From Thermoplasmata archaeon (GTDB taxonomy: Archaea; Thermoplasmatota; Thermoplasmata; Lutacidiplasmatales; UBA184): DNA of 64,000 bases. Shown here one piece after another: positions 20,890 to 62,806 of this stretch; positions within the stretch are counted from its first letter, which is position 1, and every line of letters begins with the position of its first letter. A program made the translations under genes and the position numbers. The notes beneath the pieces are model-generated. The model searched no databases, had not been told where the DNA came from, and saw only the letters and a program-made list of their open reading frames with translations. The stretch is from NCBI GenBank assembly GCA_021798415.1, contig JAJZGO010000002.1:159-64158 (forward strand). Direction: 5' to 3'.

Positions 20890-20909
20890 GGCCCTGCCTT
20901 CGGGGGGGC

Positions 20910-46698: not shown

Positions 46699-47169
46699 AT
46701 GGCGAACCCCACCGTCACCCTGAGGACGACCGTCGGCGACATCCGCCTCGAGCTGTTTCGCGACCGCGCCCCGAAGACCGTGGAGAACTTCCTGACCCTC
46801 GTCCGCAAGGGCTTCTACACGGGCCTCACGTTCCACCGCGTGATCCCGGGGTTCATGATCCAGGGCGGATGTCCCAAAGGCGACGGGACCGGCGGGCCGG
46901 GGTACGAGATCCCGGACGAGTTCCACCCCTCCCTGCGGCATGACGGTCCCGGCGTGATCTCGATGGCGAACGCCGGCCCGAACACGGGCGGCAGCCAGTT
47001 CTTCATCACGCTCGCCGCGACGAGCTGGCTCGACAACCACCACGCCGTCTTCGGCAAGGTCCGCGGCGGTCAGGACGTGGCGGAGAAGATCGCCGCGGTC
47101 CCGCGCGACGGGAACGACCGGCCCCGCACTCCGGTGCGGGTCGTCGAGGTCAAGGTCGCGGGCGCGTAA
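46699..47169 (+). CDS. ppiB: Cyclophilin-type peptidyl-prolyl cis-trans isomerase
   Basis: FHRVIPGFMIQGGCP...GPNTGGSQFFITL...HAVFGKV is the canonical cyclophilin. Confidence 0.9.
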   Translation: MANPTVTLRTTVGDIRLELFRDRAPKTVENFLTLVRKGFYTGLTFHRVIPGFMIQGGCPKGDGTGGPGYEIPDEFHPSLRHDGPGVISMANAGPNTGGSQFFITLAATSWLDNHHAVFGKVRGGQDVAEKIAAVPRDGNDRPRTPVRVVEVKVAGA

Positions 47170-47185: not shown

Positions 47186-47677
47186 TTACGCCGGGTAGTC
47201 GTAGGGGAGCCGCTCGCCCGGCGAGCGGGCGTCCTCGACCGTCGTGACGATCCCCGAGACGAGCGCGAGCGCGGGCACGAGGAGGACGAGGTCGAGGAAG
47301 GTCGCGTAGCCGACCGAGATCGCGAGCGAGTGGCTCGGGGCGGCCAGGCGGTACGGCGAGGCGAGCCGGAGGACGAGAAGGTAGGCGATCGTCACGGCGG
47401 ACGTTGCGACCGAGAGGGGGCCGTACGCCCGTGTGGGACGGGCGATGGCGCGCACGGTCGACAGCACCGCGATCGCGACCCCGGCGGCGACCACGGTGGG
47501 GATCGGGACCGGCAGCGAGATCCCGAGGGAGTCGAGGTACGCGAGGGACGCGGCGGGCACTCCGACCAGCGCGATGAGCAACAGGACCAGACGGGCGGCT
47601 CCGGCGAGGATGCGGTAGCCGAGCGACGGGATCCGGTGGTACGACGGGAGGAACCCCGCGGGAACGGCGACGCTCAT
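47186..47677 (-). CDS. Small polytopic membrane protein
   Basis: ATG 47677 (the ORF-track N-terminus is non-hydrophobic read-through). Four hydrophobic helices. ATGA overlap with the upstream gene. Confidence 0.45.
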   Translation of the reverse strand: MSVAVPAGFLPSYHRIPSLGYRILAGAARLVLLLIALVGVPAASLAYLDSLGISLPVPIPTVVAAGVAIAVLSTVRAIARPTRAYGPLSVATSAVTIAYLLVLRLASPYRLAAPSHSLAISVGYATFLDLVLLVPALALVSGIVTTVEDARSPGERLPYDYPA

Positions 47678-48498
47678 GGGATCGCCTGCGGAGGAAGGAC
47701 GATCGTGCCCGCCGGCCCCGAGAACGTCACTACCGCGGTCCCCCCCGACACGGAGCACCCGCTCGACAAGAGGACGGGCTGAGTGGAGTAGTAGTACGCC
47801 CCGGGCACGACGTCCAGGGGGAACGAGGCCGACCCGCACGTCGCACCTCCCGCATCGCGCACGACGAGCGAGAGGGTCCCGACTTCCGCGAACGAGGCGT
47901 GGTTCGTGAAGCTGACGGTGACCGGCACGCTCACCGACCCGTTGACCAGGGTCGGCGTGCCGACCCCCACCCGCAGGTTCGAGAACGGGGCGCCCCACGA
48001 GCGGTTCTCCTCCGCATGCACCGAGATCGGGAACAGGTAGGCGTACGTCGCGTTCCCCCAGACCCCGACGACCAGGTACTGGTCGCTCACCAGGAGCGAC
48101 TCGGCGGGGCCGCCCGACGTGATCGGCAGGTAGAGCGCGACCGGCACCGTCGTCACTCCTCCCGGGACGAGGTCGACCGAAGCGGTCGTTACGGTCCCGA
48201 GATAGGCTCCCGAACCGTTGGAGATCCGCAGGCTCATGGAGAAGCCTCCGACCGGGTAGAATCCGGGGTTCGACACGCTGACCGCCCCGGTGACCGCCAT
48301 GGTGCCGTTCGCCGCGAGCCCGGCGGAGAACCCTCCCGTCTGAGGGCTCTGGCGCACGAGCTCGGATGCGGAGTACGCTACGGTCCCCAAAAAGACCAAA
48401 AGGAGGACGAGCACAACGGCCGACAGCCGGGCGAATGCGCGGGCCGTGCGGTACAGACGCGGCGGGCGCCGAGGCGGGAGGGCAGCGAACGACACCAT
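47674..48498 (-). CDS. N-terminally anchored secreted protein with N-glycosylation sequons
   Basis: Signal anchor LSAVVLVLLLVFLGTVAYSA. Sequons NGTM, NGSG, NATY, NRSW, NGSV. Forms a two-gene operon with 47186..47677. Confidence 0.45.
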   Translation of the reverse strand: MVSFAALPPRRPPRLYRTARAFARLSAVVLVLLLVFLGTVAYSASELVRQSPQTGGFSAGLAANGTMAVTGAVSVSNPGFYPVGGFSMSLRISNGSGAYLGTVTTASVDLVPGGVTTVPVALYLPITSGGPAESLLVSDQYLVVGVWGNATYAYLFPISVHAEENRSWGAPFSNLRVGVGTPTLVNGSVSVPVTVSFTNHASFAEVGTLSLVVRDAGGATCGSASFPLDVVPGAYYYSTQPVLLSSGCSVSGGTAVVTFSGPAGTIVLPPQAIP

Positions 48499-48639
48499 GA
48501 GAGTGCCGTCTCTAGGAACGCGCGGGCGCACCTTGAAAAGCTGTCGGTCCGGGCGATTCTCGCAAAGGACGGCGACGACCGGAGGCGCGCCGAGACGACG
48601 CCCCGTCCGTGTCCATCGATGCCCTCGGACCGGCCCCTA

Positions 48640-49045
48640 GTTCCTAGGGAAGTGGGGGACCGCCCGGAAGTTGCCCTCGGAACCCTCGAAGCGGCCGATC
48701 CGCCAGCCCCACGGTTGCGCCTTAGGGGTCCCAGAAAGGGAACGTCCTCGTTCGTGAGCTCCGAGCATTCCCGGCCCGTGTCGTCCACGAAGTAGGCAAC
48801 GTAGGCTCGGCGGGTCGTCCCCTCCCCCCGTCGAAGCCGGGAGGGTCACCACCCGAAGTGGCCCGCCACTGGAGGGTTTTGTCGTTCGGTTCGAATCCCT
48901 TGGCGCCGCGGAAGACCCGGTCGAGGTAATCCACCCTTAGGGAACGGAGGGTTTCCGAAGCTGGGTCGGCGCAGCCCGCTCGGCCGCCCGACGCGTTCCT
49001 CCCCGCCCTTTCATCTCCCGAACGCCATTTGCGCTCCCGAGATCA
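48640..49045 (-). pseudogene. Frameshifted VOC/glyoxalase-family pseudogene (paralog of 56625..57026)
   Basis: The segments FEGSEGNFRAVPHFPRN*, YLDRVFRGAKGFEPNDKTLQWRAT and VAYFVDDTG lie in three different frames. In order they align with EDPEGNLWEISHFPKE*, AYEELRKKGVRFLQPPDTRPNGQRFAFF and LAVFLDDAD of the intact VOC gene. Confidence 0.45.
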
Positions 49046-49053
49046 GCCGGACC

Positions 49054-49932
49054 CTAGAAAGTTCCCGCGTCCCGGGCCGAGTAGCATGACGGGTAGAGCG
49101 GTAGGAAACCCAATTCCTCACGGGCCCGACGCGTGTCCAGCAGACCCTCCCAGGGATCCCAGGGCAGGTCGAATCTATCGGGGGTCGGCTCCGGAGCTTG
49201 GGCAAGTCTCGTCAACTCAAGGAGTGTGATGGGAGCGTCGTCAGCGATGTTGTAGACACCCCCGGCACGGGGCTCCCGATAGAGTGCCCGAATCACGGCT
49301 TGGCCTACATCGGCATGGTGAACGGAGTGCATTCGCCGCGCCGGATTCCATCGGGCCACGTGAGGTATCATCTCCCAAACGTGCCGGTCGCCCTCACCGT
49401 ACACGAACCCGAGGCGGAGGACGTAGACTCCCACGCCCTGGTCACGACCCAAGTCCGTCAACTTCGCCTCGGCCTCCACTTTCGAGGCGGGATAAGGATG
49501 GGAGGGAGGCTCCGGACCCGGGGAATCGCCTTCTCGGGCCGGACGCTTCAGTCCGGGCGGATAGACGTTGCTGGTACTGGCGAAGATGATCTTCTCGACT
49601 CCCGCCTGTTGGGCAGCTGCCGCCAAACGCTCGGTACCCACCACGTTCACCTCACGTGCCTGCTCGGGCGTAGCGCCCCGGAAGAACGCGGCGAGATGAA
49701 CCACGGTTTTCACCCCGTTCAAGGCCGGGCCCAGGGACTCCGCCCGGAGCAAGTCCCCCTCCGCGATTTCCGTTCCCAGGGCTCGAAGTTCCTGGACCCT
49801 GGGTCCGGGTCGGATGAGGGCCCGGACAGGAAGACCGTGGTTCAGGAGTCGAGGAACCAGGTGCGAGCCGACTTTACCGGTGGCTCCCGTGACGAGAATC
49901 GGGTCCGACCGATCCAATGCACGGCTAATCAT
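49054..49932 (-). CDS. NAD-dependent epimerase/dehydratase (SDR superfamily)
   Basis: ILVTGATGKVGSHLVPRLL (GxxGxxG) and the YxxxK motif YPASK. Confidence 0.85.
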   Translation of the reverse strand: MISRALDRSDPILVTGATGKVGSHLVPRLLNHGLPVRALIRPGPRVQELRALGTEIAEGDLLRAESLGPALNGVKTVVHLAAFFRGATPEQAREVNVVGTERLAAAAQQAGVEKIIFASTSNVYPPGLKRPAREGDSPGPEPPSHPYPASKVEAEAKLTDLGRDQGVGVYVLRLGFVYGEGDRHVWEMIPHVARWNPARRMHSVHHADVGQAVIRALYREPRAGGVYNIADDAPITLLELTRLAQAPEPTPDRFDLPWDPWEGLLDTRRAREELGFLPLYPSCYSARDAGTF

Positions 49933-49976
49933 TAGCCAGCTAATGTTAGGGATGGATTTAAGGATTCGTGCGGTAG

Positions 49977-50444
49977 GTGGTGAGCGGGACTCTCGTGGCG
50001 CCTCCGGATTTCTGGGACGATTTCGTCCGCGTGGCGAAGCTGTCCCGGTCCGCCGTGGACGAGATCATGAAACAATACGGAGGTCGTGGCGGGCAGAACC
50101 GCGTCCTCTGGGCCCTGTACGCGGAAGATGGGCTCACGCCCGTCGAGATCGCGCGGAAGCTAGGGGTCGCGGCTCCTACCGTCGTGAAGATGTCGTCCCA
50201 CATGGTAGCCTCGGGGCTCATCACGAGACGAAGGGACTCGGTCGACCGACGCCGCGTACACCTCTATTTGACCGATCGAGGTCGCGCGGTCAAGCGACCC
50301 ATCGAGGATGCGACACGACAGTTCAGGCGCGCGACCAGCGCCGGATTGACGGCCGAGGAACGTAAGGTCATGTCGACCGCCCTCGCGAAGATCGTCCGAA
50401 ACCTGGAACGATCCACCCGAACGGCCCCATCGGACGAACCTTGA
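49977..50444 (+). CDS. MarR-family transcriptional regulator
   Basis: LTPVEIARKLGVAAPTVVKMSSHMVASGLITRRRDSVDRRRVHLYLTDRG is the MarR wHTH. Confidence 0.85.
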   Translation: MVSGTLVAPPDFWDDFVRVAKLSRSAVDEIMKQYGGRGGQNRVLWALYAEDGLTPVEIARKLGVAAPTVVKMSSHMVASGLITRRRDSVDRRRVHLYLTDRGRAVKRPIEDATRQFRRATSAGLTAEERKVMSTALAKIVRNLERSTRTAPSDEP

Positions 50445-50528: not shown

Positions 50529-50601
50529 GAAGCCACTGGAGGGACTTGAACCCCCGACCTGCTGATTACGAATCAGCCGCTCTGCCGGCTGAGCTACAGT
50601 G
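50529..50601 (-). tRNA. tRNA-Thr (anticodon CGT)
   Basis: Hand-folded 73-nt cloverleaf: acceptor GCCACTG/CAGTGGC, D arm GCTC-AGCCGGCA-GAGC, anticodon arm GCTGA-TTCGTAA-TCAGC, variable loop AGGTC, T arm GGGGG-TTCAAGT-CCCTC, discriminator T. No encoded CCA. Confidence 0.8.
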
Positions 50602-50642
50602 GCAACCGTCAGGGTCCTTGCCCGAGTTTTCATAAGCTTGGC

Positions 50643-50830
50643 TCACGCCCCGGCCGTCAGAGCCTCGGCCGTCGCGGATTCGAATCTGCCGACCGTGGCG
50701 TACCCCTGGGCCCCGTCCCAGCCGACGTAGCGTGCGGCCCTGTCGACCGATTCGTGCCCGGAGAGGTGCTTGAGGTCGACCCGGCTCGCACCGGCGTAGT
50801 AGGCGCTCCGACCTAAACTTCGTCTCAGGT
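50643..50830 (-). pseudogene. C-terminal remnant (~60 aa) of a tyrosine recombinase/integrase, 42 bp upstream of tRNA-Thr
   Basis: DLRRSLGRSAYYAGASRVDLKHLSGHESVDRAARYVGW matches the integrase box II (R...LGH-x-s...R-Y catalytic Tyr). The N-terminal catalytic and DNA-binding domains are absent. The rest of the listed ORF (50643..51176) is non-homologous read-through. Confidence 0.5.
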
Positions 50831-50866
50831 CGGTGCCGACCGGGAGGGAGGCACTGACTACGCATC

Positions 50867-51622
50867 CTACCCCTTCCCGACTTTGACCCCGACGAGCAGC
50901 CCGCGACCGGGCATCAACCCGCGGGACAGGAAGTGCGGTCGGAGCCCGGCGGACCGCATACACTGAAGGAGCTCGTAGCGTGTGAGCAGCAATCCGACAT
51001 CGGTCGCACGGTAGTAACGGACCCCTTGACCGGGCCTCCCGATGAGGAAGTGCCACTGGATCGTCGAACGATTCCCCCGCCGGATCGAGTACGCCATTCG
51101 GACCGCAGTCAAGTCGGGCGACTCGGTCTTCCGAAGATGGACTGTGCCAGGGTGAAACGCCGAGGGGTCGAACCATGGTTCCACGATCGCGACTCCGCCA
51201 GGGTCCAGGTGGCGCGCGAAATTGGCGAAGGTTCTTCGCACGTCTTCCTTCGTGCCGAGGTGACCGATCGCGCTGAAGAGACAGCTCACGACGTCAAATC
51301 GACGCCCGAGGCGAAAAGAACGCATATCGCCGCGGACCAGCCGAACTCCGGGCAAACGGCTCCGCGCTGGCCGGAGCATCTCCCGGCTCCCGTCCACGCC
51401 AACGACGGCGTGTCTCCGCCGCAGGAACTCGAGGTGCCGCCCGGTACCGCACGCGACATCGAGCCAAGTCGTCTTTCCCTTGCGTCCAAAGCGGCGAGCG
51501 ATGGCCTCGAGACGGCGGGATTCGCCCTGGTAGTCCTTCCAATCGTTGAGGGCGTCGTAGTACTTGGCCAGTTCGTGGAACTGGGACAGCGACACCGAGG
51601 TCCCGCTACCCCCTCTCCCCAT
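50867..51622 (-). CDS. Class I SAM-dependent methyltransferase
   Basis: FHELAKYYDALND...WLDVACGTGRHLEFL...VVGVDGSREML...LDPGGVAIVE. Start ATG 51622 (or slightly upstream). Confidence 0.7.
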   Translation of the reverse strand: MGRGGSGTSVSLSQFHELAKYYDALNDWKDYQGESRRLEAIARRFGRKGKTTWLDVACGTGRHLEFLRRRHAVVGVDGSREMLRPARSRLPGVRLVRGDMRSFRLGRRFDVVSCLFSAIGHLGTKEDVRRTFANFARHLDPGGVAIVEPWFDPSAFHPGTVHLRKTESPDLTAVRMAYSIRRGNRSTIQWHFLIGRPGQGVRYYRATDVGLLLTRYELLQCMRSAGLRPHFLSRGLMPGRGLLVGVKVGKG

Positions 51623-51978
51623 GCTCGCTTCGACGAGCGCATGGTATTTGATAGGCTCCACCTTCCCCGCCCCCTCGAGCCTCTGAAACCGTCGCGAGCG
51701 TTCGGGGGTCGAACGCGAGGAGCGCACGGAAGGGGCCGCGGACAGCCCCGGCCAGGGACATAGTGGCGCACCCACGCACTCCGGACGGACGGGGACTTCG
51801 TTCCCGCCCGTAGGGCCCGCGTGGCGACCGGCATCAACCGTAGGGGCGGGAAAAAGGGGCTCGGTTTCCTCAACCCACCAGCGGGACCGGACGATTGCTC
51901 CCGGCCCGCTTTGTGACTCCAGGCACCGGGTTCCGTTTCCGGACGCGTTCTAGCGAACGGCCCCCCGGGAGGCCCAGT

Positions 51979-52371
51979 TCAACCGACACCGATCTGTTTG
52001 CGAAGAGAGTCGGTCTCAAAGTAGACGTGGGCGGTTCGGATCTTCCCCTGCCGGAGCTCGTACGCGACACAGAGCGGCACGCGTACCGACTTCCCGCTGG
52101 CCTTGAGGTCGCCGAAATCGCCCACATGGCGCCCCACGAAGTCCGCCTCCAGGATCGCTCTGTCTCCCTCGATCACGAGGTTCTTCGCCTCCGCCGTCGC
52201 CTGAAACGCGCGGTGGTAGAAGAACTCGAGCAGCCCCTCGATCTCAACTCGTCCCCGGGCCCGCTGGCCCGTGCCCATTACCGTGAACTCGGCATCGGGC
52301 GCGACCGCCCCGGGGTCGTGACCGTTCAAGTATCTCTCCATAACCTCCTTGGTCTCCTGCGATCCCATTTC
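51979..52371 (-). CDS. SnoaL-like / NTF2-fold protein
   Basis: ATG 52371 gives MGSQETKEVMERYLNGHD...FYHRAF...FVGRHVGDF (ester-cyclase-like). The ORF track's N-terminal 62 aa look like read-through. Confidence 0.6.
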   Translation of the reverse strand, partial: EMGSQETKEVMERYLNGHDPGAVAPDAEFTVMGTGQRARGRVEIEGLLEFFYHRAFQATAEAKNLVIEGDRAILEADFVGRHVGDFGDLKASGKSVRVPLCVAYELRQGKIRTAHVYFETDSLRKQIGVG

Positions 52372-52490
52372 CCTGCTCCCAGCGCCTCGGGCGCCGGAGC
52401 TCCGCACGGAGCCCCGGAAGAAGAACCGCGTGCTCGTGATACACGGCAAATCGGACACGGCTCCCCCACGGGCCCATTCGCGGTGGACCC

Positions 52491-53483
52491 TCACCGCCGC
52501 CGGTCGTTCGAAGAGGTACCGTCGCCGCTGATCGCTTCGAGGCGCGCGTCGAACCATGCCCCGTACGAGCGGGCTCTCAGGGGGTAATCCGGTGAGACCC
52601 TACGAACGTGGGGGATCGCGAGCACCCGGGCGATGGCCTGCTGGACGGCCGCCGCGGACTCTACCGGAATGCGGACCACCACGAGGTTCCCGAGCTGTTC
52701 GTGCCGACCCCCGTAGACGGCGGGGTCGGTGTCGAGGGGTAGGAGGTCAGGATGCAGCAGCTCGACCGAATGTTCCACTTCCGACCGAGCGCTGGCCGAA
52801 TCGCACGTGATGTGCAACACGATGCTCGGGGACCGCGACCAATCTATGTTGGGGATATACAAGATGGCCCGACCCTCGACCAAGGCGTCCCAGTGCCGGC
52901 GCACTCGTCGTTCGGGCTGGCCGATGGTCGTCGCGAGCTTCCGGACCGAGTGGCTGGGGGAGCGTCGGGCTGCGAGGATGATCCGCCAATCCAAGCGGTC
53001 CGCTCCGATCGTGGATGTCGGCGGACGCATCACGAACGGTCCCCGCACCTCGCGATCCGGTGATAATCGACGGAGGCTCTCGATACGGCGGTCCCGGCGG
53101 GGCCTCGGGTGCTCATCGACGCACAGGATCGAGACCGAGGTCCCGGGGTGGGGCGACCGTTCGTCTCCGTAGCCCGTGTACGCGCGAAGGGCTCCCTCCA
53201 ATGCGCCCACCCTCCCCAGCACCTCGTCGGCGTCCTGCGTCTCCGTGAGCAGCAGTTCAAATCGGGCCACGCCCACACCGAACAATCTCGGATTGGGCCA
53301 GACGTCGACCCCATGCCAGAAGCCTTCTTCGCGCCAACGGCGAAGGCGAAGCCGGGCCGCGTTGCGACCGAGGCCGACGGACCGGGCGATCTCCTGGACG
53401 GTGACGCGGGGATCGATCCCCCACACCGACCACCTTCGATCGGGGTACATCGCCCGGAGCATCGAGAGGTCGAGGTTGTCCAC
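52491..53483 (-). CDS. Tandem Lrp/AsnC-like HTH regulator (two HTH-plus-regulatory-domain repeats)
   Basis: GTG 53483 gives VDNLDLSMLRAMYPDRRWSVWGIDPRVTVQEIARSVGLGRNAARLRLRRWREEG. The second repeat is LDWRIILAARRSPSHSVRKLATTIGQPERRVRRHWDALVEG. Confidence 0.55.
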   Translation of the reverse strand: MDNLDLSMLRAMYPDRRWSVWGIDPRVTVQEIARSVGLGRNAARLRLRRWREEGFWHGVDVWPNPRLFGVGVARFELLLTETQDADEVLGRVGALEGALRAYTGYGDERSPHPGTSVSILCVDEHPRPRRDRRIESLRRLSPDREVRGPFVMRPPTSTIGADRLDWRIILAARRSPSHSVRKLATTIGQPERRVRRHWDALVEGRAILYIPNIDWSRSPSIVLHITCDSASARSEVEHSVELLHPDLLPLDTDPAVYGGRHEQLGNLVVVRIPVESAAAVQQAIARVLAIPHVRRVSPDYPLRARSYGAWFDARLEAISGDGTSSNDRRR

Positions 53484-53738
53484 GAAAGGGGGGAAGGGCG
53501 CTTCGGCAAAAGGACCACGCGATACCGTCCGGGGCCTTCCGAGAAGCCTGGGATTCTCCTTTCGACGAGGCGCCCGGTGGGCGGTCGGGGCCGCGCGCGC
53601 CACCTTGACCGGACGGCTCCGACGTCCCCTCTCCGAGGACTTTCGACGCACATCCACCGTTCACTCTTTGACGGTACACGGACCCGGGGGTCGCGTCGTA
53701 AGTGCTACTAAGGTTCCGAGCAATGGGTACGAAGGTCG

Positions 53739-54989
53739 ATGACCTCGGCTCCGATTCGAATCTCCCTTCAAGCGGCTCGGCGGCTCGCCGTCACCAAGCA
53801 GCACCTCGCCGGCAAGCGTCCCGGGCGGGCCACGGCCGAGCGGATTGTGGAGACCGTTCGCGACTTGCCGTACGTCCAGTGGGATCCGGTCAGCGTCGTG
53901 GCCCCCTCCCACATCCTCTCGCTATGGGCGCGAGTCGGGTCGTTCCGGCTTGCCGAACTGGACCGGCTGTTATGGACCGAGAGGCGCCTCCTCCAGCACT
54001 GGATCCCCTTCGCCAGCGTCGTAGCGACCGAAGACTACCCCGTCTACTCCTCCCTCATGCGGAGGTATCCCGAGTCCCTCTCCGACTCTTGGGGAGCCCA
54101 ACGCGTCCGCGCCCGAGCGTTCCTCGCAAAGCACGCGGAACTTCGACGGAGGGTTCTCGCGGACCTGCAAGGCGGTCCGATGCAGTTGACCCAGTTCAGC
54201 GACCACGCACGGACCAAGAGGGTCGCCGGGGACTGGGAGCCTTCGAGCGCGGTCTCCGAGATGCTCTGGCACCTCCTCATGTCGGGCGAGGTGATGGTAG
54301 TCGGGCACGCTGGTAACCAGAATCTGTGGGGGCTGCCCGACGCCTTCCTCCCGTCATGGGTCAACCGCGAGGTGCTCTCCGAGGAGGAGGCCGATTTGGA
54401 GGCGGCCCAGCGGGCCCTGAGAGGGCTTGGAGTGTCGACGGCGAAGGAGATCCACTACTACTTCATCCGGGGCTGCTACCGGGATATTCGATCGACCCTG
54501 GAGACTCTCGTGGCCGACTCCCGAGTCCACCGCGTGGGGATCGAGGGGCTGGCCGACCGTGACGAGCGCTTTGTCCACGCGGACGACGTGGCCCTGCTCG
54601 ATGACCTGACCCGAGGCAAGTTCTCGCCGCGGATCGCGGTCCTTCCCCCCTTCGACAACATGATCTACAACCAGGCTCGGGGCAGACGGTTGTTCACCTT
54701 CGACTACGTCCGCGAGCAGTTTCTCCCGAAGGCAAGGCGGCGGTTCGGAATGTGGGTGCTTCCCATCCTACGGGGAGAGCGGTTGATCGGGCGCATGGAC
54801 GCCCGCTTGGACAAGCCGGCGCGACGGTTACGGGTCAACGCGCTGTTCGCGGAGCCGGGCGCACCGACGGCCCCGGCCGTCGCCACCGCGATTCGAGAGG
54901 AGCTGGATCGCCTCGCCGCGTTCCTTGGAGCGGACTCGGTGGCATTTGCATCAAAAGTGCCGTCGATCTGGAAGAGGGGCCTCGTCTAG
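53739..54989 (+). CDS. YcaQ/AlkZ-family winged-helix DNA glycosylase-like protein (DUF1006)
   Basis: Colinear with E. coli YcaQ: RISLQAARRLAVTKQHL, VQWDPVSVVAPSHILSLWARVGSF, FGMWVLPILRGERLIGRMDARLDK. Confidence 0.75.
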   Translation: MTSAPIRISLQAARRLAVTKQHLAGKRPGRATAERIVETVRDLPYVQWDPVSVVAPSHILSLWARVGSFRLAELDRLLWTERRLLQHWIPFASVVATEDYPVYSSLMRRYPESLSDSWGAQRVRARAFLAKHAELRRRVLADLQGGPMQLTQFSDHARTKRVAGDWEPSSAVSEMLWHLLMSGEVMVVGHAGNQNLWGLPDAFLPSWVNREVLSEEEADLEAAQRALRGLGVSTAKEIHYYFIRGCYRDIRSTLETLVADSRVHRVGIEGLADRDERFVHADDVALLDDLTRGKFSPRIAVLPPFDNMIYNQARGRRLFTFDYVREQFLPKARRRFGMWVLPILRGERLIGRMDARLDKPARRLRVNALFAEPGAPTAPAVATAIREELDRLAAFLGADSVAFASKVPSIWKRGLV

Positions 54990-55330
54990 ATGCTCCCAAC
55001 TCGGAGTCGCGGGTAGGTTGTCACTACGTCCGATCTCCCGCGAGCCGGCGAGCACGCCGGGGGCATCCCCCGTCGCCCACCGGCCCGGTTCGTTCGGTGT
55101 TTCCCGCCGCAGCGGCCACTAGGGCCACTCATCCAGCGGATAGGCTAGCTAGGTAGGGGGCACATCGGGATGCCCGCACCGGTCGCCCAGGTGTTGTCAC
55201 GACGGCGTTCTCGTAGCTCCTCACGCACGATAGGAACAGGTTACTCGGACCGAGCGTGGAACCATCCCCCGCGAAGGAAGTCGGCGGGTCCGACGCACCG
55301 CGTGCATGGCGGCCTTCTGACTGAGATGGG

Positions 55331-55756
55331 TCAAGCGGAATCTACTCGCAAGCCCTTTCCTCGGCCCCGGCGCCGTGGAGCCGAGCTCGACCGGCCGCTA
55401 CCGTCGGGGTAGACCGCCAGAAAGACAGTCGCGCGACGAGATCTCCTCGGCCACCGATAGGCTCTGCACTTCGCCCGGGCCGGCAGAACGAGCACATCAC
55501 CAACCCCGAGTACTTGCGACCGTTGGCGCTTCTCGAGGAACTCGACGCGGAGCCGGCCCTGAACCACGACCAAAAGATCGACTCGGGGTGATTCGAACCA
55601 GTTAGGGTCGAGCGCCTCCCGCTGCTTTCGGACCCAAACGACCTCGAACCCTGAGCCGTGATAGACGGTACCTACTTCCCCCGTCGGCCCCGTTCGAAGC
55701 CCGCTCCCGTCCTTTTTCAGCGTGCGAATCACGCGAGGACGAACCTTCCCGCCCAT
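55331..55756 (-). CDS. Cupin-fold protein
   Basis: DLLVVVQGRLRVEF...VLGVGDVLVLPA fits the two-motif cupin barrel. Start ATG 55756. Confidence 0.45.
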   Translation of the reverse strand: MGGKVRPRVIRTLKKDGSGLRTGPTGEVGTVYHGSGFEVVWVRKQREALDPNWFESPRVDLLVVVQGRLRVEFLEKRQRSQVLGVGDVLVLPARAKCRAYRWPRRSRRATVFLAVYPDGSGRSSSAPRRRGRGKGLRVDSA

Positions 55757-56022
55757 ATCCGGTGTAGCTGCGGACGCCACGGGACCCGCCTCTCAGTGAA
55801 AGGGTTTGTGGAAAGCCGGACGGGGTCCTGAGGTCATGCAGTGTTGGGAGCACAGGGCGATGTGCGCCCACGTTCGAGTCAAGCGATAGGTAGCCACCAC
55901 TACGGTGGATCTGCTGACGGAGAACGGGCCCAGGGGGTGCGAGCGATACGCCGAGATCGTCCCGGCGGAGGTATATCGGCGAAGGACCGCCTCGCGGTTG
56001 GGATCGATCGAGGACGCCCGAA

Positions 56023-56586
56023 TCACTCGGCCAGCGTGCTGCTGAACCAGGCGCGAGTCGGCGCGTCGATATCCATCTGCCAGAAGAGCGCGTTCATTTC
56101 GCCCCGGTGCTGGAGCTCTTCCTCCACCACGTGCCAGAGGATCGTACGAAGGTTCGCCCTCATCTCGAAGGGCGTTCCGTTCCCCTGAACTCCCCGGATC
56201 ACGAAGCTCCGATTGAGTCGGGCTGGGGTCAACGACCTCGCGAGGGCCCGACTGGCCCGGGCGACGTGACCGACCACCCTTCGGATCTCCTTCGGGGACA
56301 GGGCTCCCTTCACCTCGGGATGCGATTCCTGACGATCCCCGGGAACGCTTTCCAGCCACCAGATGTTGTTGTCGAGGATGTGGAGGAAGATGTCTTGGAT
56401 CGAAGGGAAGGATGCGCCCCGGTCCCGGACGCGTTCCTCTCTCGGAAGCCCGAGCAGTTTCTCCAGGTAGTCCCTACGGGTCTCCACGAGCCATTGAATC
56501 CACGCCCCGGCCAAGTCGGCTTCGCTGACGCTCCGCCGCGAAGGCGCTCCTTTCGGGCTCGGCGCCCTAGCTCTTCGACCCGTCAT
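56023..56586 (-). CDS. DinB/DinB_2-family (DUF664-like) metal-dependent four-helix-bundle protein
   Basis: ATG 56586. DIFLHILDNNIWWLESV, VGHVARASRALARSL and ILWHVVEEELQHRGEM are the three His-containing helices. Confidence 0.65.
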   Translation of the reverse strand: MTGRRARAPSPKGAPSRRSVSEADLAGAWIQWLVETRRDYLEKLLGLPREERVRDRGASFPSIQDIFLHILDNNIWWLESVPGDRQESHPEVKGALSPKEIRRVVGHVARASRALARSLTPARLNRSFVIRGVQGNGTPFEMRANLRTILWHVVEEELQHRGEMNALFWQMDIDAPTRAWFSSTLAE

Positions 56587-56624
56587 CGAACCGTCCTTCT
56601 CGCCGACCGGTGTTGCAGGTCTTG

Positions 56625-57026
56625 CTACTCCTTCGGAAAGTGAGAGATCTCCCAGAGGTTCCCTTCCGGGTCCTCGAAGAACGCGAAGCGCTGTCCGTTC
56701 GGGCGGGTGTCTGGCGGCTGAAGGAACCGAACCCCCTTCTTGCGGAGCTCCTCGTAGGCACGGTCCGCATCGTCCAAGAAGACCGCGAGGTAGTTCCGTT
56801 GAAGGAGGCTCTCCCCGGGTCGCACGCGCTCTTTGGGAATCTCCCGAGCAAGGCCCTCGGCGGAGACGAGCGCGAGTCCCGGCCCGGCTTTGTCGCCGAA
56901 CTTCAAGTACGCGAAACCGTCCGAGAGTTCCTCCAGCTTCAAACCTAGCTTGTCGCGATAGAACTCTGCGCACCCCTTCACGTCGCGGGCGGTCAGGGCG
57001 TACGCGTTCACGTGGTCCATCGCCAT
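56625..57026 (-). CDS. VOC-family (glyoxalase/bleomycin-resistance/dioxygenase) protein, intact copy
   Basis: MAMDHVNAYALTARDVKGCAEFYRDKLGLKL...FEDPEGNLWEISHF is a classic betaalphabetabetabeta-module pair. Confidence 0.75.
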   Translation of the reverse strand: MAMDHVNAYALTARDVKGCAEFYRDKLGLKLEELSDGFAYLKFGDKAGPGLALVSAEGLAREIPKERVRPGESLLQRNYLAVFLDDADRAYEELRKKGVRFLQPPDTRPNGQRFAFFEDPEGNLWEISHFPKE

Positions 57027-57421
57027 CGGCTCAACCTCGTCGGCGGCTGTCGAGGCATTCGAGCTCAACTATAAGACGGGCGAGTGGGCCGAATCCTCCC
57101 GTCATCGCACCGAACCGATCCACGGCACGGGAGGAGCCCGGAGCACGTGACCGCGAGGTCACCTCTCTGCCGGTACGGAGGCCCACACGAGGAATCGGCC
57201 GTAACGACCTGCCGGGGGGGAGCGCATCGTACCCGCGGGCGGGTCCGGTTCTCTCCCGTGAAAGCGGACCGTGGTGGCACGCTCGAAGTGCTGCTATCGA
57301 ACTTGGGCTCCGAGGACGGACCACGGTTTCTATCCAATTTCGAGGCGCCGCGTGGGAATCCGTCCGGCGTTGCATGATACTTCTGAGCGGGGGATTCACG
57401 CTCCGTGAAATCGGGGCATTC

Positions 57422-57999
57422 CTATCTCGCTGTCTCGTAGTGGAGGAACAGCTCGCCGCCCTTGAAGTGCTTGGCTTCGACGAGCCGCAGCGTCTGCTGG
57501 CCCTCCATCTCGCCAAAGAACTGGCGGCCCTTCCCCAAGATGACCGGACAGATCGCGAACAGGTACTCGTCGATGAGGCCCCGGCGCATAAGCTCCCTTC
57601 CCAGGTCGGGCGCGACCACGACCACATTCTTGCCGTCTTCCTCTCTCAGACGAGCGACGGAGGCGCCCACGTCGCCGGCCAGGACCCTTGAATTCTTCCA
57701 CGTGGCGGGCACCCGCGAGTCCGAGAGGACCGCCTTCTGAGCCTTCTCCGCAAACTCCGACATCTGCCGGTACCACGGATGCTCGCCCGGCGTTCGTTTG
57801 GAGGTGGGCCAGAACTCCGCCCACTCCTCGTACGTTCGGCGGTCGAACAGGAGGGTATCGACGGACCCCCACCTCTTGACCCACATCTCGGTGGAAATCG
57901 GGTCTTCCACCGAGGCGGGCGGGTCTCCCGATCCTGGGTAGACCGGAAACTCGTTGAACCCATCGAGAGTCATGTACATGCTCAGTATGATCCTTCGGT
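57422..57999 (-). CDS. RibD C-terminal domain / dihydrofolate-reductase-family protein
   Basis: MPNHRRIILSMYMTLDGF...LVEAKHFKGGELFLHYE is the DHFR-like reductase fold. Start ATG 57999 or 58011. Confidence 0.75.
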
Positions 58000-58017
58000 G
58001 GTTCGGCATGGCCAACC

Positions 58018-58497
58018 TCATCCATCCGAAGCCGATCGAAGGTCGTGTCGGTGCTCGAGGACGGACTTGAGGTTCATCGCGAAGTAGGTCCAACCCCACT
58101 CGGCACTGCCGTAGAGTTCCGTCCATTTCTCCATACGAGGGAATCCGGTGTGCTCGACGTTGAGGACGGTCCCCCCGTCTTTCGCCGTGACGGAAAGCGA
58201 GAGCACCGTGCCGTGCAACTCCACGCCCGGCCACGTCCACGCGAGGGCGACCCTCTGACCCTCTCGGAAAGCGACGATGCTCCCCGTGTGGGTTGGTCCG
58301 TCGTTCCACGCCAGCAAGTACTTGCCCCCCTTCTTGGGAGAAAACGCCGCCCGATCGCAGAGCCACCGGGTCAGCCACTTGGCATCGGTGAGGGCTCGAA
58401 ACACCGAGTCGGGCGCCGCTCGAATGAAATAATGATGGCTCACCGATCTCTTCGTCTTGGCCGCCACGGGAAGATCCTCCGGCCAACGCATTATCAC
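58018..58497 (-). CDS. SRPBCC (AHSA1 / polyketide-cyclase-like) domain protein
   Basis: SVSHHYFIRAAPDSVFRALTDAKWLTRWL...GTVLSLSVTAKDGGTVLNVEHTGF. Confidence 0.7.
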   Translation of the reverse strand: MIMRWPEDLPVAAKTKRSVSHHYFIRAAPDSVFRALTDAKWLTRWLCDRAAFSPKKGGKYLLAWNDGPTHTGSIVAFREGQRVALAWTWPGVELHGTVLSLSVTAKDGGTVLNVEHTGFPRMEKWTELYGSAEWGWTYFAMNLKSVLEHRHDLRSASDG

Positions 58498-58538
58498 GGT
58501 GCGATTTAATCGGGTAGGGGAATGAAAGTGGGGCGGCG

Positions 58539-59012
58539 ATGACGACGAAGAGATCCCGCTATCAGCCCCCCCCGATGAAAGTCGAGTTCCTTTCGTGCCC
58601 GGTTCAGGCCAGCCTCAAGGTCCTTGGTCGTGAGTGGGCCTTCTTGGTGCTCACTTCGATTGCACTTTTTCGAGCCAACCGTTTCAACGCGATGATCCGG
58701 GCCATGCCGGGGCTCTCGAAGCGGCTCCTCACCATGCGGCTATCAGAACTCGAGCACGCCGGATTCATCGTGCGCGCAGAGAGTCGGCAGGGGTACGTCC
58801 GATGGGAGTTGACGACCAAGGGGGCGGATGTGGTGCCGATCCTCGTGACGATGGTGCGGTTCGGTTCGAGGTGGTATGCGGACGAGGTGTTCGCTGACCG
58901 AACTGCCCGCCCTTTGAGCGACATCTTTGACGAAGGGTACATCCGTAAGACTCTGGGAATCCCCCCGAGTCGAGGGCCAGCCATTCCCGAAGGGGCTATC
59001 CCGGAAGCATGA
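58539..59012 (+). CDS. HxlR-family transcriptional regulator
   Basis: CPVQASLKVLGREWAFLVL...LSKRLLTMRLSELEHAGFIVR is the HxlR-type wHTH. Divergent from the SRPBCC gene. Confidence 0.8.
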   Translation: MTTKRSRYQPPPMKVEFLSCPVQASLKVLGREWAFLVLTSIALFRANRFNAMIRAMPGLSKRLLTMRLSELEHAGFIVRAESRQGYVRWELTTKGADVVPILVTMVRFGSRWYADEVFADRTARPLSDIFDEGYIRKTLGIPPSRGPAIPEGAIPEA

Positions 59013-59083
59013 CCCGCGCTCACGACGCACGGCCACGGTTCACTTTCTGACGGTAGAAGGACCTGGGGGTCGCGTCGTACGTG

Positions 59084-59420
59084 CTACGTCGGACCCGGTT
59101 CGTACGTGATCTCGAATACCTTACCATCGGGCATCCGAAAGTGCTGCCATGCGTACCCACCGGGTCTGTCCCTATGGACCGGACCGAGAAGCTCGATCCC
59201 AGCGGCTTCTAGCTCTTCCCGGGCCCGGTCGATGTCGTCCACTCGGAAGCCGCACACGACCTCGTTGCGAGCAAACTGTTCCGGCGCGAGGGACATTTCG
59301 GACCGAAGATCTCAAACTTGTCCCCGTTCGGAAGCCGGTACACGACAAAGTCCGGGACTCGCGGACGGCCGAGTGTCCGAGAGTCTGTTCGGCGAGGTGC
59401 TTCATAGATTCGAACGCCTT
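59084..59420 (-). pseudogene. Second frameshifted VOC/glyoxalase-family pseudogene
   Basis: RVPDFVVYRLPNGDKFEIFGP (one frame) is followed by MSLAPEQFARNEVVCGFRVDDIDRAREELEAAGIELLGPVHRD...PDGKVFEITYEP (another frame). Both are VOC-like but no single frame spans them. Confidence 0.45.
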
Positions 59421-59517: not shown

Positions 59518-60777
59518 TCAGACTTCGGGCTCGGTGCGCCCCCGGGGTCCCATCGTGTACGCCTCCTCGCCGTGCTGGCTGAGGTCGAGCCCGGCCTCTT
59601 CCTCCTCGGGGCGGACCCGGATCGGTGTGATGAGGTTGATCGCGCGCAGGAGGAGATACGAGCCGACGAACGAGAACGCGCCCACTACGGCGACCGCGAA
59701 GAGCTCCACGAGGAACAGGTGCGGGTTACCGTAGAAGAGGCCGTTCGCGCCGGACGCGTTGATCGCGACCGTAGCGGCGAGCCCGGTCGCGAGGACGCCC
59801 CACATCCCACCGACCCCGTGGCAAGCGAAGACGTCGAGCGAATCGTCGAGGCGGCTGCGGGCGCGCAGGTTGGTGACGAAATTCGCAAGGATCGCCCCGC
59901 TTGCACCGATCAGGATCGCCACCATCGGGGTCACGAACCCGGCGGCCGGGGTGATCGCGACCAGCCCCACCACGGCCCCGATCGACATCCCAACGGCCGA
60001 CGGCTTTCCCTTGAAGGTCCAGTCGACGATCATCCAGGTCACGGCCGCGGCCGCCGCGGCGAGGTTCGTGTCCACGAGCGCGGAGACGGCGAGCTCGTTC
60101 GCGGCCAGCGCGCTGCCTCCGTTGAACCCGAACCATCCGAACCACAGCAACGCCGCTCCGAGCATGACGTAGGGAACGTTGTTCGGCCGGGCGCTCTTCG
60201 CCCGGTCCGTCTCCTCCCTCCGGCCGATGACGAGGGCCGCGGTGATCGCCGAGACTCCAGCCGTGGTGTGGACGACGAGCCCGCCGGCGAAGTCGAGAAC
60301 CCCGAGGTCCCTCAGCCAGCCTCCGTCGCCCCACACCCAGTGGGCGACCGGCGCGTAGATGAGCGTCGTCCAGAGGACGACGTAGATGAGCAGGGCCTTG
60401 AAGCGAATCCGCTCCGCGAATGCGCCGATGATCAGCGCCGGAGTGATCGCCGCGAACTTGAGCTGGAAGGCGAAGTAGAGCAGCGCGGGGATCGTGGAGG
60501 CGTAGAAGGGGTTCGGGGCGGCACCCACCCCGTTCAGTCCGACGTTGGAGAGGTTGCCGATCACTCCGTCGACATTGGGACCGAAGGAGAGGCTGTACGC
60601 CCAGAGTGCCCAGACCAGGCTCACGACGGCGAAGATGATCATCGTCTGGACGATCGTGGACACGAGGTTCTTGCGACGGACGAGGCCGCCGTAGAAGAAC
60701 CCGAGCGCCGGCGTCATGAGCATCACGAGCCCAGTCGCCGTCAGGACCCAAGCCACGTCGCCGGAGTCGATGGTCAT
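59518..60777 (-). CDS. amt: Ammonium transporter (Amt/MEP family)
   Basis: 11 TM helices and DFAGGLVVHTTAGVSAITAALVIGRR, the conserved Amt twin-His region. Confidence 0.9.
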   Translation of the reverse strand: MTIDSGDVAWVLTATGLVMLMTPALGFFYGGLVRRKNLVSTIVQTMIIFAVVSLVWALWAYSLSFGPNVDGVIGNLSNVGLNGVGAAPNPFYASTIPALLYFAFQLKFAAITPALIIGAFAERIRFKALLIYVVLWTTLIYAPVAHWVWGDGGWLRDLGVLDFAGGLVVHTTAGVSAITAALVIGRREETDRAKSARPNNVPYVMLGAALLWFGWFGFNGGSALAANELAVSALVDTNLAAAAAAVTWMIVDWTFKGKPSAVGMSIGAVVGLVAITPAAGFVTPMVAILIGASGAILANFVTNLRARSRLDDSLDVFACHGVGGMWGVLATGLAATVAINASGANGLFYGNPHLFLVELFAVAVVGAFSFVGSYLLLRAINLITPIRVRPEEEEAGLDLSQHGEEAYTMGPRGRTEPEV

Positions 60778-61040: not shown

Positions 61041-62198
61041 TCACCGAACGGCGTCCAGAGCCTCGGTGACGTCCCGGACGAGGTCTTCGGTGTCCTCGAT
61101 GCCCAAGGAGAGCCGTACGAGCCCCGCGTCGATCCCCCGGCGGGCGAGCTCGTCGGCCGGCAGGTGTCGATGCGACGTGAGCCCCGGTACGCTCGCGAGG
61201 CTCTCGACCCCGCCCAGGCTCGCCGCGACATGGACGAACCGCAGCCGGGAGAGGAACCGCTCGGCCGTCGCCGCCCCGCCGCGCAGCGAGAGGGAGACCA
61301 TCCCGCTGCGGCCGCGCATCTGGCGGGCGGCGATCGACTCCTCCTCCGCGCTCGCCCAGCCGGGGTAGTGAACTCGGCGGACCGCGGGGTGGTCGCGCAC
61401 GGACTCCGCCACCCTTCGGCCGTTCTCGTTCTGCCGCGCGACCCTCAGCGCGAGAGTCTTGAGCCCCCGCCCGAGCAGGTACGCGGCGAACGGGTCGACG
61501 GACGCCCCGAAGTACCCTTTCGCGTCGACCCGTTCGACGAGGCGTTCGGCGCCGACGACGACCCCGGCGAGGAGGTCGGAGTGCCCGCCCAGGTACTTGG
61601 TGGCGCTGTGGACGACGAGGTCGGCGCCGAGCGCGATCGGGTTCTGGTTGATGGGCGTCGCGAACGTGTTGTCGACGAGCAGGACGGCCCCGACCCGGTC
61701 GGCGGTTTCCGACCACCGGGCGAGGTCGTGGACTTCGAGGAGCGGGTTCGTCGGGCTCTCCACCACCACGAGCCGGGTCGCGTCCGAGACGACCTTCTCG
61801 GGCTCGCGGGCCTCCGACGCGCCGACCTCGCGGACCCGGACCCCGTAACGCGGCAACAGGTCCGTGAGGAGGTCCGTCGTGCCGCCGTAGAGGCCCTCGA
61901 GAGCGACGACCTCGTCGCCGCTCTTGAGGAGCGAGAGGACGCACGCGGTGATGGCGCCCATGCCGGAGCCGAAGAGTCGGGCGGCTTCGCCGCCCTCGAG
62001 CTGGCGGACGATCTCGGCGGGGAGCTCGAGCGTCGGGTTCTCGATGCGGGTGTAGAGGTAGGCCCGTCCTTTCTCCGACGCTTCGGAGCGGTCGGCGGGC
62101 CAGTGGAACGTCGACGTCTGGTAGATCGGCGGCACCACCGCGCCCGCGTTGTAGTCGGGACGGCGCGCGCCGTGGACGAGGCGGGTCGTCGGCCCCAC
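61041..62198 (-). CDS. Cys/Met-metabolism PLP-dependent enzyme (cystathionine gamma-synthase / O-acetylhomoserine sulfhydrylase / methionine gamma-lyase family)
   Basis: GTG 62198 gives VGPTTRLVHGARRPDYNAGAVVPPIYQTSTF. PLP lysine context VVHSATKYLGGHSDLLAGVVV. The ORF-track upstream extension to 62954 is out-of-frame overlap with nadM. Confidence 0.85.
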   Translation of the reverse strand: MGPTTRLVHGARRPDYNAGAVVPPIYQTSTFHWPADRSEASEKGRAYLYTRIENPTLELPAEIVRQLEGGEAARLFGSGMGAITACVLSLLKSGDEVVALEGLYGGTTDLLTDLLPRYGVRVREVGASEAREPEKVVSDATRLVVVESPTNPLLEVHDLARWSETADRVGAVLLVDNTFATPINQNPIALGADLVVHSATKYLGGHSDLLAGVVVGAERLVERVDAKGYFGASVDPFAAYLLGRGLKTLALRVARQNENGRRVAESVRDHPAVRRVHYPGWASAEEESIAARQMRGRSGMVSLSLRGGAATAERFLSRLRFVHVAASLGGVESLASVPGLTSHRHLPADELARRGIDAGLVRLSLGIEDTEDLVRDVTEALDAVR

Positions 62199-62266
62199 CC
62201 AGGACGGCAGCGGTTCGAACCGTGCGCGTCGCGGGCGGTGGGGCGTCGCGGGTTCGCCGCCGTCGG

Positions 62267-62806
62267 TCAAAGGAACCGTCCCGCGGCGGAGCGGCCCTGG
62301 CCCTGCCGCAGGATCCTGAGGCGGGCGGGGGCTTCGAGGCTCGCCAGGTACCGGGCCACCGCCGGCGGGACGAGCTCCTTCCAGCCGCGGCCGCCCGCGA
62401 GCCGCCGGCGCAGGTTCTCGCCCTCGAAGCGGCGTCGGTCGAGGAGGGGGAGGCCCTCGACATCGTACCCCGCCTTCTCGAACAGGAGGCGCGTGAGCGG
62501 GTTGTTGGTGTAGACCCGGTCGAAGTGCGGGAGGAGCCCTTCGAGGTAGCGGACCCAGAGGGCGTGGCGGCCGATGTCCGGCACCGGTACGATCTCGACG
62601 CCGTCGAGCTTCGCCTCCGCGAGCGCGCGGGAGATCATCTCGTACCGCTCGCCGGCCGTGAACGGGTTCTTCCAGGTGTACGACTCCTCGGCGCTCCCGA
62701 TCCCCACGAGCAGGCGGTCGTCGGGCCGACGGGCGAGGATCGCCCGGACCAGACCGAGGTGGCCCCCGTGGAACGGCTGGAACCGGCCGACGAGGAGCCC
62801 GCGCAC
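62267..62806 (-). CDS. nadM: Archaeal-type nicotinamide-nucleotide adenylyltransferase
   Basis: GRFQPFHGGHL (HxGH), IGIGSAEESYTWKNPFTAGER and YTNNPLTRLLFEKAGY are colinear with Methanocaldococcus NMNAT. Confidence 0.85.
   Translation of the reverse strand: MRGLLVGRFQPFHGGHLGLVRAILARRPDDRLLVGIGSAEESYTWKNPFTAGERYEMISRALAEAKLDGVEIVPVPDIGRHALWVRYLEGLLPHFDRVYTNNPLTRLLFEKAGYDVEGLPLLDRRRFEGENLRRRLAGGRGWKELVPPAVARYLASLEAPARLRILRQGQGRSAAGRFL

Follow-up and report, generated by a model that had tools for sequence, protein, structure and literature searches.

In a soil archaeon of the Thermoplasmata, the surroundings of a gene for tRNA-Thr(CGT) are probably the fixed, decayed remains of at least one integrative element that entered the chromosome at this tRNA gene. 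The gene lies in a stretch of 64,000 nucleotides (positions 159 to 64,158 of contig JAJZGO010000002.1, assembly GCA_021798415.1), which we call the window and from whose first letter all coordinates below are counted. Its GC content is about 70%, and it is more than 99.8% identical to contigs of several near-identical metagenome-assembled genomes of Thermoplasmata, for example GCA_027448145.1 and ENA ERZ27237400. All the related loci that we recovered are likewise labelled Thermoplasmata, and they come from soil, peat and similar samples. The feature is of a known kind, a decayed integrase-linked island, in an uncommon arrangement that combines a classical integrase with an island on the 5′ side of the tRNA gene. 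A prediction made earlier from the letters of the window alone had proposed a degraded integrative element here. A decayed integrase-linked island at tRNA-Thr is indeed what stands of it; as for the patch of small accessory genes upstream of the tRNA, indirect grounds make it probable that it was cargo of such an element, or accreted within it.

The tRNA gene named in that prediction is present and intact (50531-50603, reverse strand; recognized by ARAGORN and, with 69.4 bits, by Rfam family RF00005). It is the only tRNA gene that ARAGORN finds in the window, and an Rfam scan of 46-62 kb returned nothing besides it. Its sequence is the same in the window, in the sister locus L144 and in the more distant locus L009. 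Upstream of it, on the same strand, ends a tyrosine-recombinase pseudogene (50643-50879), the C-terminal remnant, residues 226-304, of a protein from a family about 305 residues long. Pfam alone cannot settle its identity: the 177-residue open reading frame and a 72-residue peptide from it gave either no match or a match of the remnant to PF00589 with an E-value of 0.23, not significant, yet at the correct positions (131-166 of 172) of the profile. A search of 5.8 billion proteins brought two matches, P0001, a 66-residue fragment that is 92% identical, and P0002, a protein of 114 residues named 'integrase' by JGI (E 2.4e-6). The profile made of these two sequences and the remnant retrieved 84 proteins from 1.84 billion cluster representatives, including full-length proteins of about 300 residues that align at their extreme C-terminus (E 4.5e-25 for P0003, 305 residues), and all ten full-length matches that were tested fit PF00589 (1e-11 to 7e-24). 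Used in turn as a tblastn query, P0003 meets the window at 50879-50649 with its residues 226-304 (E 9e-22, 58% identity), so that the remnant spans about 79 codons and overlaps the stop codon of a methyltransferase gene at 50867. By family profile and tblastn, then, the remnant is a genuine integrase, homologous to the PF00589 tyrosine recombinases; the prediction, which had made its case depend on a significant profile search, came through with full-length relatives. It had given the remnant some 60 residues (50643-50830) and placed it 42 bp upstream of the tRNA: its nature, strand and side were right, but it reaches further, to 50879, and the gap to the tRNA is 39 bp.

Alignment shows that the remnant keeps the arginine of the HxxR motif, the second histidine and the tyrosine. 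The first histidine of HxxR is a threonine, and both the N-terminal arginine of box I and the catalytic lysine have been deleted. The set R-K-H-R-H/W-Y of a functional enzyme is incomplete, and the gene is therefore dead. The integrase frame stays open over 177 codons (50643-51176, reverse strand), and so runs, in a different frame, over the 3′ portion of the methyltransferase gene; only the last 79 or so codons are integrase-derived, and high GC content is the probable cause of the open frame.

Comparison with relatives shows that the DNA between the remnant and the next chromosomal anchor is an insertion. This anchor is CysMet, a pyridoxal-phosphate enzyme of Cys/Met metabolism, cystathionine-synthase-like (61041-62270, reverse strand), whose homologues, with 77-79% amino-acid identity, led us to the loci L061, L062 and L063. 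In each of these, tRNA-Thr(CGT) begins 50-120 bp after CysMet, this integrase family is absent, and variable accessory genes lie downstream of the tRNA, before conserved genes for a membrane protein and a peptidyl-prolyl isomerase (PPIase). In the window the membrane-protein gene (47674-48531, reverse strand; traced by tblastn to L009, L011, L062 and L063) is the right-hand chromosomal anchor, followed in synteny by the PPIase gene (46699-47169), but some 10.2 kb and the integrase remnant now fill the interval between CysMet and the tRNA that was ancestrally of 50-120 bp. L009, whose CysMet and PPIase are 64% and 77% identical in amino acids to those of the window, shows CysMet, 153 bp, an integrase remnant and the tRNA, with no patch; L011, a syntenic locus, has a full-length integrase of 305 residues directly before tRNA-Thr(CGT). 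The sister L144 is colinear with the window from 57328 to 40870, with 92.7% identity in the first part of the patch and 95.6% in the rest; measured kilobase by kilobase, identity is 96-98.6% in the core flank and 90-96% in the stretch of the island between 53.7 and 48.7 kb. Since L144 shares the whole structure, the island predates the split between the two lineages. The patch is thus absent from the same locus in the more distant L061-L063 and L009, as one expects of a classical island, and present in the sister, an outcome that favours the original prediction, which had submitted itself to this very comparison. The same pattern appears in an independent pair, where in L067 urocanase and a full-length integrase are separated by 6 kb of accessory genes, and in L010 urocanase stands directly beside an integrase remnant. 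Comparisons by tblastx of the loci with the window were, in DNA of such high GC content, too noisy to be of use except for strong syntenic matches.

Composition also sets the patch apart. Across 49-60 kb the GC fraction is 0.61-0.67 against about 0.71 on both sides, and the tetranucleotide correlation with the rest of the window is 0.87-0.96 in the patch against 0.97-0.985 elsewhere; gene by gene, the GC content of third codon positions (GC3) is 0.67-0.84 in the patch and 0.88-0.95 in the flanking core genes. All three profiles, GC, codon and tetranucleotide, which the prediction had put forward as a check, separate the patch from its flanks, and with its deviant base composition, as with a remnant of integrase 39 bp from a tRNA, the patch resembles the classical islands. 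On the other side of the tRNA, GC3 is 0.71 in an epimerase gene and 0.76 in a MarR gene; the grouping of the genes by GC3 delimits a compositional island from about 48.6 to 59.45 kb, with the tRNA inside. The insertion extends by composition to about 59.45 kb and by synteny to about 61.04 kb, the longer measure including a gene for an ammonium transporter, Amt (59518-60777, reverse strand; Pfam 3e-120), which does not stand beside CysMet in L009 or L061-L063. The limits first proposed, 50.6-59.5 kb, agree with the compositional edge; they fall short of the synteny gap, and the odd composition continues past the tRNA. Elsewhere in the window, a GC dip at 9-13 kb was considered as a further island and rejected: a single Ser/Thr-rich protein of 1415 residues, probably a surface protein, accounts for it (8899-13146), with a normal GC3 of 0.91. 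Another dip, at 19000-25000, includes several genes whose GC3 is 0.73-0.82, and may mark a further flexible region.

The side of the tRNA on which the island lies is best seen in the relatives of the integrase. They comprise a close subfamily of 12-13 loci (the window lineage, L144, L009, L010, L011-L015 and L064-L067; L068 apparently duplicates L012) and a wider family of 45 loci, at most 45% identical. Every one of the 12-13 close-subfamily loci has a co-oriented tRNA-Thr that starts about 40 bp after the integrase stop codon, an invariant module of integrase, spacer and tRNA which is not present in the wider family. In intact relatives the backbone genes lie upstream of the integrase: a P-loop protein of 1034 residues, with weak matches to TraG, TrwB and FtsK, or its remnant, in L012, L064, L065 and L066; a resolvase and a DNA methylase in L013; small open reading frames typical of mobile elements in L011. 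The GC content is lower upstream of the integrase in L012, L013 and L066, and clearly higher downstream in L012 and L013. Backbone genes and lower GC upstream of the integrase place the body of the element on the 5′ side of the tRNA. As a side observation, the contigs of L011, L014, L015, L064 and L065 repeatedly end 0-2.3 kb upstream of the integrase gene, which hints at DNA there that varies among strains or exists in several copies, perhaps as the free and the integrated form of the element in one sample.

The spacer between integrase and tRNA belongs to the same module. In the window it occupies 50604-50642 (reverse strand), from the integrase stop codon (50643-50645) to the 5′ end of the tRNA, and carries a TATA-like TTATGAAAA at about -32 to -24, a plausible position for an archaeal TATA box. 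Alignment separates two classes of spacer, an element type and a chromosomal type. The element type is conserved across the subfamily loci whatever the chromosomal context or the anticodon; in each integrase-linked locus the tRNA junction carries one copy of its signature, CGGG-N8-CTGACG-N3-GCC, which is found at no other place in 225 loci and is missing from the integrase-free L061-L063. These three share instead, upstream of tRNA-Thr(CGT), the promoter-like box CATTATAGG, that is GCGCCA(C/G)CATTATAG. The tRNA of the window now stands behind the element-type spacer, not behind the chromosomal promoter box, and a search for second copies of the tRNA, its 5′ half and that box anywhere in the window came back empty. 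The spacer may act as promoter of the tRNA. Among archaea, only the suicidal pTN3-like integrases are described as using the 5′ half of a tRNA (PMC8371274). No direct repeat of the tRNA 3′ end marks the limits of the window's patch, which lies 5′ of the tRNA; none had been seen by eye in the original prediction and none was found on searching. With the island on the 5′ side, the tRNA 3′ half was the wrong target for such a search. What is found, an element-type spacer and an insertion between CysMet and the tRNA, corresponds to an element upstream of a reconstituted tRNA that is cut off from its original promoter, as with the pTN3-like elements.

A sequence of events that would account for this arrangement may be proposed. 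The element would have encoded, as its last gene, a classical Xer-like tyrosine integrase, followed some 40 bp later by a spacer of its own and an attachment region resembling tRNA-Thr. On recombining with the tRNA-Thr of the chromosome, by a crossover presumably inside the tRNA, the element would have come to lie between CysMet and the reconstituted tRNA, which would from then on be preceded by element DNA in place of its original promoter box. Later deletions would have left only the last quarter of the integrase, removed whatever backbone genes there were together with the distal attachment site (attL), and so locked in about 9 kb of small genes for stress, detoxification and regulation; a second small islet, with MarR and epimerase genes, would have settled on the classical 3′ side of the same tRNA. 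A broader proposal, which we put forward tentatively and which could as easily prove wrong as right, if not slightly more so, is that soil Thermoplasmata harbour a family of Xer-like integrases, classical and non-suicidal, whose elements enter 5′ of tRNA-Thr (CGT or TGT) and bring along their own spacer or promoter, possibly together with the tRNA's 5′ part. Element DNA would then be what the host tRNA relies on, and the block made of integrase 3′ end, spacer and tRNA would outlast the decay of the rest and, to judge from the 98% identity between the window and L009, appear to move between distant lineages.

This identity is a puzzle in itself. Compared with its counterpart in the sister L144, the greater part of the window's remnant (50700-50880) reaches only 79-83% identity, the copy in L144 having an in-frame stop, against 95% for the last 57 bp of the integrase with the spacer and 100% for the tRNA, a pattern in keeping with neutral decay and with constraint confined to the vicinity of the tRNA. 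Yet the same blocks are 96.6-100% identical between the window and L009 (98.3% over 287 bp, window 50530-50816 and L009 8788-9074), despite core proteins that are only 64-77% identical. The identity stops exactly at the 3′ end of the tRNA and, on the other side, at a junction inside the L009 remnant, and L009 shares window-specific decayed residues that L144 lacks. Shared decay and sharp ends point to a recent transfer of about 290 bp from a window-like donor, or else to an assembly chimera in L009. A recent independent invasion of both genomes was considered and dropped, as L144 shows the island to be older than the split and the remnant to be evolving neutrally.

The patch itself begins, next to the integrase, with a class I S-adenosylmethionine-dependent methyltransferase whose last codons overlap integrase-derived DNA (50867-51661; Pfam Methyltransf_25, 3e-18). 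Except where a forward strand is indicated, it and the genes that follow lie on the reverse strand. They encode a SnoaL-like protein (51979-52368; 1.4e-11, also called as a gene in L001); a winged-helix protein of 330 residues with a weak match of HTH_24/AsnC type (52491-53483; HTH_24, 1.5e-6), and none in NCBIfam; a protein of the AlkZ/YcaQ-like DNA glycosylase family (53739-54989, forward; PF06224, 4.6e-50); a possible cupin, weak (55331-55780; Cupin_1, E 0.005, below cutoff; GC3 0.67); a DinB-family protein (56023-56586; 6e-9); an intact VOC/glyoxalase-family protein (56625-57026; 7.7e-20); a RibD_C protein, dihydrofolate reductase-like (57422-58009; 2e-9); an AHSA1/SRPBCC protein (58018-58467; 1e-16), divergent from an HxlR-type regulator (58539-59012, forward; 4e-15). 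The compositional left edge of the island is a frameshifted VOC pseudogene (59093-59373), where residues 74-137 and 41-81 of a homologue in L049, 64% identical, match by tblastn in two different frames, and where an open reading frame of 70 residues matches Pfam Glyoxalase (E 5.5e-4). The list of genes in the original prediction is thereby borne out by Pfam for methyltransferase, SnoaL, AlkZ-like, DinB, VOC, RibD_C, AHSA1/SRPBCC and HxlR, and weakly for the Lrp-like and cupin genes. It had also counted three copies of VOC, two of them frameshifted; the intact copy and the pseudogene at about 59093-59373 stand, but the copy at 48640-49045 could not be confirmed, with a tblastn match of 29 residues (E 0.003) and no Pfam match for its stitched translation. 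Genes of these families recur near related integrases: orthologues of AlkZ, with 53-58% identity, lie within 10 kb of wider-family integrases in five of 50 Thermoplasmata loci (L018, L022, L036, L039 and L052), and homologues of AHSA1, HxlR, DinB and RibD_C do so as well (also in L029-L031, L038, L044 and L056), which suggests that small detoxification genes are regular cargo of islands of this class.

A repeat search revealed in the patch two copies, both on the forward strand, of a 65-nucleotide imperfect palindrome (53644-53708 and 59023-59087, the latter abutting the VOC pseudogene), with conserved inverted ends (CGACGCAC...GCGTCG) and a variable centre. In L144 two copies (3637-3692 and 4260-4314) flank an insert of 552 bp with an extra, intact VOC gene, where the window has a single copy. 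This looks like a small indel of cassette type. The repeat is restricted to the lineage of the window and L144.

On the 3′ side of the tRNA, the window holds the MarR gene (49977-50444, forward strand) and the NAD-dependent epimerase gene (49054-49932, reverse strand), both identified by Pfam. In their place all the more distant relatives that were examined (L009, L011, L061-L063) have different genes, and homology with relatives resumes only at about 48546. Composition and relatives together make this DNA (49054-50444), within the compositionally odd 48.6-50.5 kb, a separate islet, on the classical side. Its distal boundary might be an exact direct repeat of 12 nucleotides, CCCTCCAGTGGC (48865-48876, reverse strand), which reproduces the last 12 nucleotides of the tRNA before the discriminator base, 1.66 kb downstream of it; it is the sole other copy in the window, where 0.03 would be expected, but it barely exceeds shuffled controls in local alignment, and makes a weak candidate for attR. 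A clearer case exists in L011 (3025-4929), where a 21-bp repeat of the tRNA 3′ end bounds an islet of 1.9 kb downstream of tRNA-Thr(CGT) that codes for a methyltransferase and for a protein with a PIN domain; the full-length integrase lies upstream of the same tRNA. In L061 a different PF00589 integrase, of 261 residues and not detected with P0003, directly follows the 3′ end of tRNA-Thr(CGT) (11351-12436), with PKD, NosD, rve, MFS, MarR and Usp genes next in line; the two sides of tRNA-Thr(CGT) are thus used by integrases of two unrelated families. In L015 (930-5117), right after tRNA-Thr(TGT), two tandem paralogues of 638 residues, with a guanylate-cyclase-like motif at their start, come with a 55-bp repeat that includes the last 14 nucleotides of the tRNA, a tandem duplication or a tandem insertion at the tRNA 3′ end.

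How far the patch can be attributed to the element that brought the integrase has now to be weighed. It could also be that native flexible genes were gathered by unrelated events (other islands, illegitimate recombination, rearrangements) at a hotspot of plasticity around tRNA-Thr, the integrase remnant being the scar of a separate, cargo-less element such as that of L009. Several observations lend weight to this view and count against delivery by the element. The patch holds no mobile-element backbone genes, whether for replication, transfer or virion, so that its delivery by the integrase-bearing element is reached only indirectly. Neither the window nor the 10-kb flanks of the related loci yielded an attL, including the 10 kb upstream of the integrase in L012, L013, L066 and L067 (a 19-nucleotide near-match in L067 lies inside a coding gene and was taken as chance), and this leaves both the position of the crossover and the origin from a single element unproven. 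The methyltransferase has hundreds of homologues across the Thermoplasmata, 62-93% identical, at distances like those of the core enzyme CysMet, which fits vertically inherited, native flexible genes over recent import; Amt, although within the synteny gap, has a host-like GC3 of 0.91; the similar types of accessory genes that L062 and L063 carry 3′ of the tRNA speak for a general zone of plasticity, as do the unrelated 3′-side integrase of L061, the small 3′-side islets bounded by tRNA 3′-end repeats in L011 and possibly in the window, and the VOC indel at the 65-nucleotide repeat, a mark of ongoing small-scale turnover. In L067, finally, the GC content is host-like upstream of the integrase and low downstream. 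Against a mosaic of native genes stand the position of the patch, exactly where intact relatives keep the body of the element, from the upstream chromosomal gene to the integrase; the ancestral gap of 50-120 bp between CysMet and tRNA, which leaves no room for native genes; and the pair L067 and L010, which shows the same pattern independently. The want of attL and of backbone genes, the distances of the methyltransferase, Amt and the genes of L062 and L063 are the reasons why we hold a cargo origin to be probable and no better, and grant the mosaic a minor, though real, share of probability.

Two further explanations bear on the integrase. The original prediction had evoked integrases of the SSV type, 'suicidal' enzymes whose attachment site lies inside their own gene, so that integration splits the gene (the class is described in PMC8371274 and PMC7253208); the fragment would then be the int(C) half. 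The general pattern, a C-terminal integrase fragment beside a tRNA in an archaeon, is all that speaks for it. Such a gene should be split into N- and C-terminal parts flanking the element, with no intact copy in the integrated state, but nine related loci (integrated loci including L011-L013 and L064-L067) carry uninterrupted, full-length genes in chromosomal context next to a tRNA. The N-terminal fragment for which the prediction had suggested a search was not found by tblastn in the window. Moreover, the remnant stops short of the tRNA instead of overlapping it, and its 5′ edge varies from case to case: the copy in the window starts at residue 226 and that of L010 at about residue 213, and L009 keeps residues 108-163 fused to 247-304. 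The family is nearest to the profiles of XerA, IntI and XerC/D, though far below their cutoffs: the best profile or structure-sequence matches are 4a8e, XerA-like (5e-19), and IntI4 (7e-16), and NF040815 of NCBIfam is among the closest profiles. This integrase, then, is of the classical Xer-like type, not of the SSV type, and the SSV explanation may for practical purposes be taken as refuted. Nor do two scans of viral contigs provide evidence that the element was a virus: they contained no close relative of the integrase, the best matches being generic phage integrases with at most 30% identity. The distant kinship with IntI brings to mind an integron-like array, in which an IntI-like recombinase would have captured short genes, the 65-nucleotide palindromes serving as attC-like sites. 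Ten of the 12 genes are co-oriented, VOC, DinB, cupin, SnoaL and SRPBCC are typical of environmental integron cassettes, and the repeat, with its inverted ends and variable centre, flanks a single-gene difference between sister genomes. But the weak match to the integron integrase scores 52.6 bits against a cutoff of 265; the integrase stands at the downstream end, co-oriented with the genes; and in place of an attC after each cassette there are two copies of a single-lineage repeat in the window, with several neighbouring genes only 8-38 bp apart, which leaves no room for attC. The fold z-scores of the repeat are unremarkable and Rfam finds nothing there. We regard an integron as very improbable.

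As a decayed island, the region is a routine feature of a genome and accounts for the patch of flexible stress and detoxification genes; the locus documents how uncultured soil Thermoplasmata gain and lose small detoxification genes. Should insertion on the 5′ side with a supplied promoter prove true, this would be a second archaeal example beside the pTN3-like elements, mechanistically different from them; it would suggest why the 3′ end of the integrase is retained, and island finders that look only 3′ of tRNA genes would miss such islands.

It remains to compare the island with known systems. With the classical tRNA-linked islands (P4 and pSAM2 in bacteria, the pNOB8 type in archaea) it shares a PF00589 recombinase that is intact on integration, a tRNA as target, accessory cargo, a deviant composition, and, in the course of time, an integrase that decays and attachment sites that are lost. 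In their usual arrangement the recombinant tRNA keeps its own promoter, as recombinant tRNA genes nearly always do, and the island lies 3′ of the tRNA (Williams 2002, summarised in PMC8371274); here, by contrast, island and integrase lie 5′ of an intact tRNA, which stands behind element DNA. The archaeal XerA and the integron integrases are the closest by sequence profile, but the family cutoffs are missed by a wide margin (72.6 against 220 bits), and the gene is patchy, often a pseudogene, and flanked by genes of mobile elements; the family is neither a chromosome-dimer resolvase nor an integron integrase. The pTN3-like integrases of Thermococcales (pTN3, TKV4) offer the nearest geometry, with the element upstream of a reconstituted tRNA that is separated from its original promoter, the tRNA gene's 5′ half serving as attB, as set out in passages of PMC8371274 and PMC5495485. 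Those enzymes are suicidal, of SSV type, with a gene that is split and a tRNA read from the integrase promoter, whereas here the Xer-like integrase stays whole, ends about 40 bp before the tRNA and leaves a separate, conserved spacer, and the 5′ half is no more than a candidate for attB. A parallel outside the archaea is provided by the integrative and conjugative elements of the SXT/R391 family, which integrate into the 5′ end of prfC and supply it with a new promoter and a new 5′ end. There, as would be the case here, an element replaces the 5′ part and the promoter of its target gene, though SXT/R391 elements are bacterial, their target codes for a protein, and their integrase belongs to an unrelated family.

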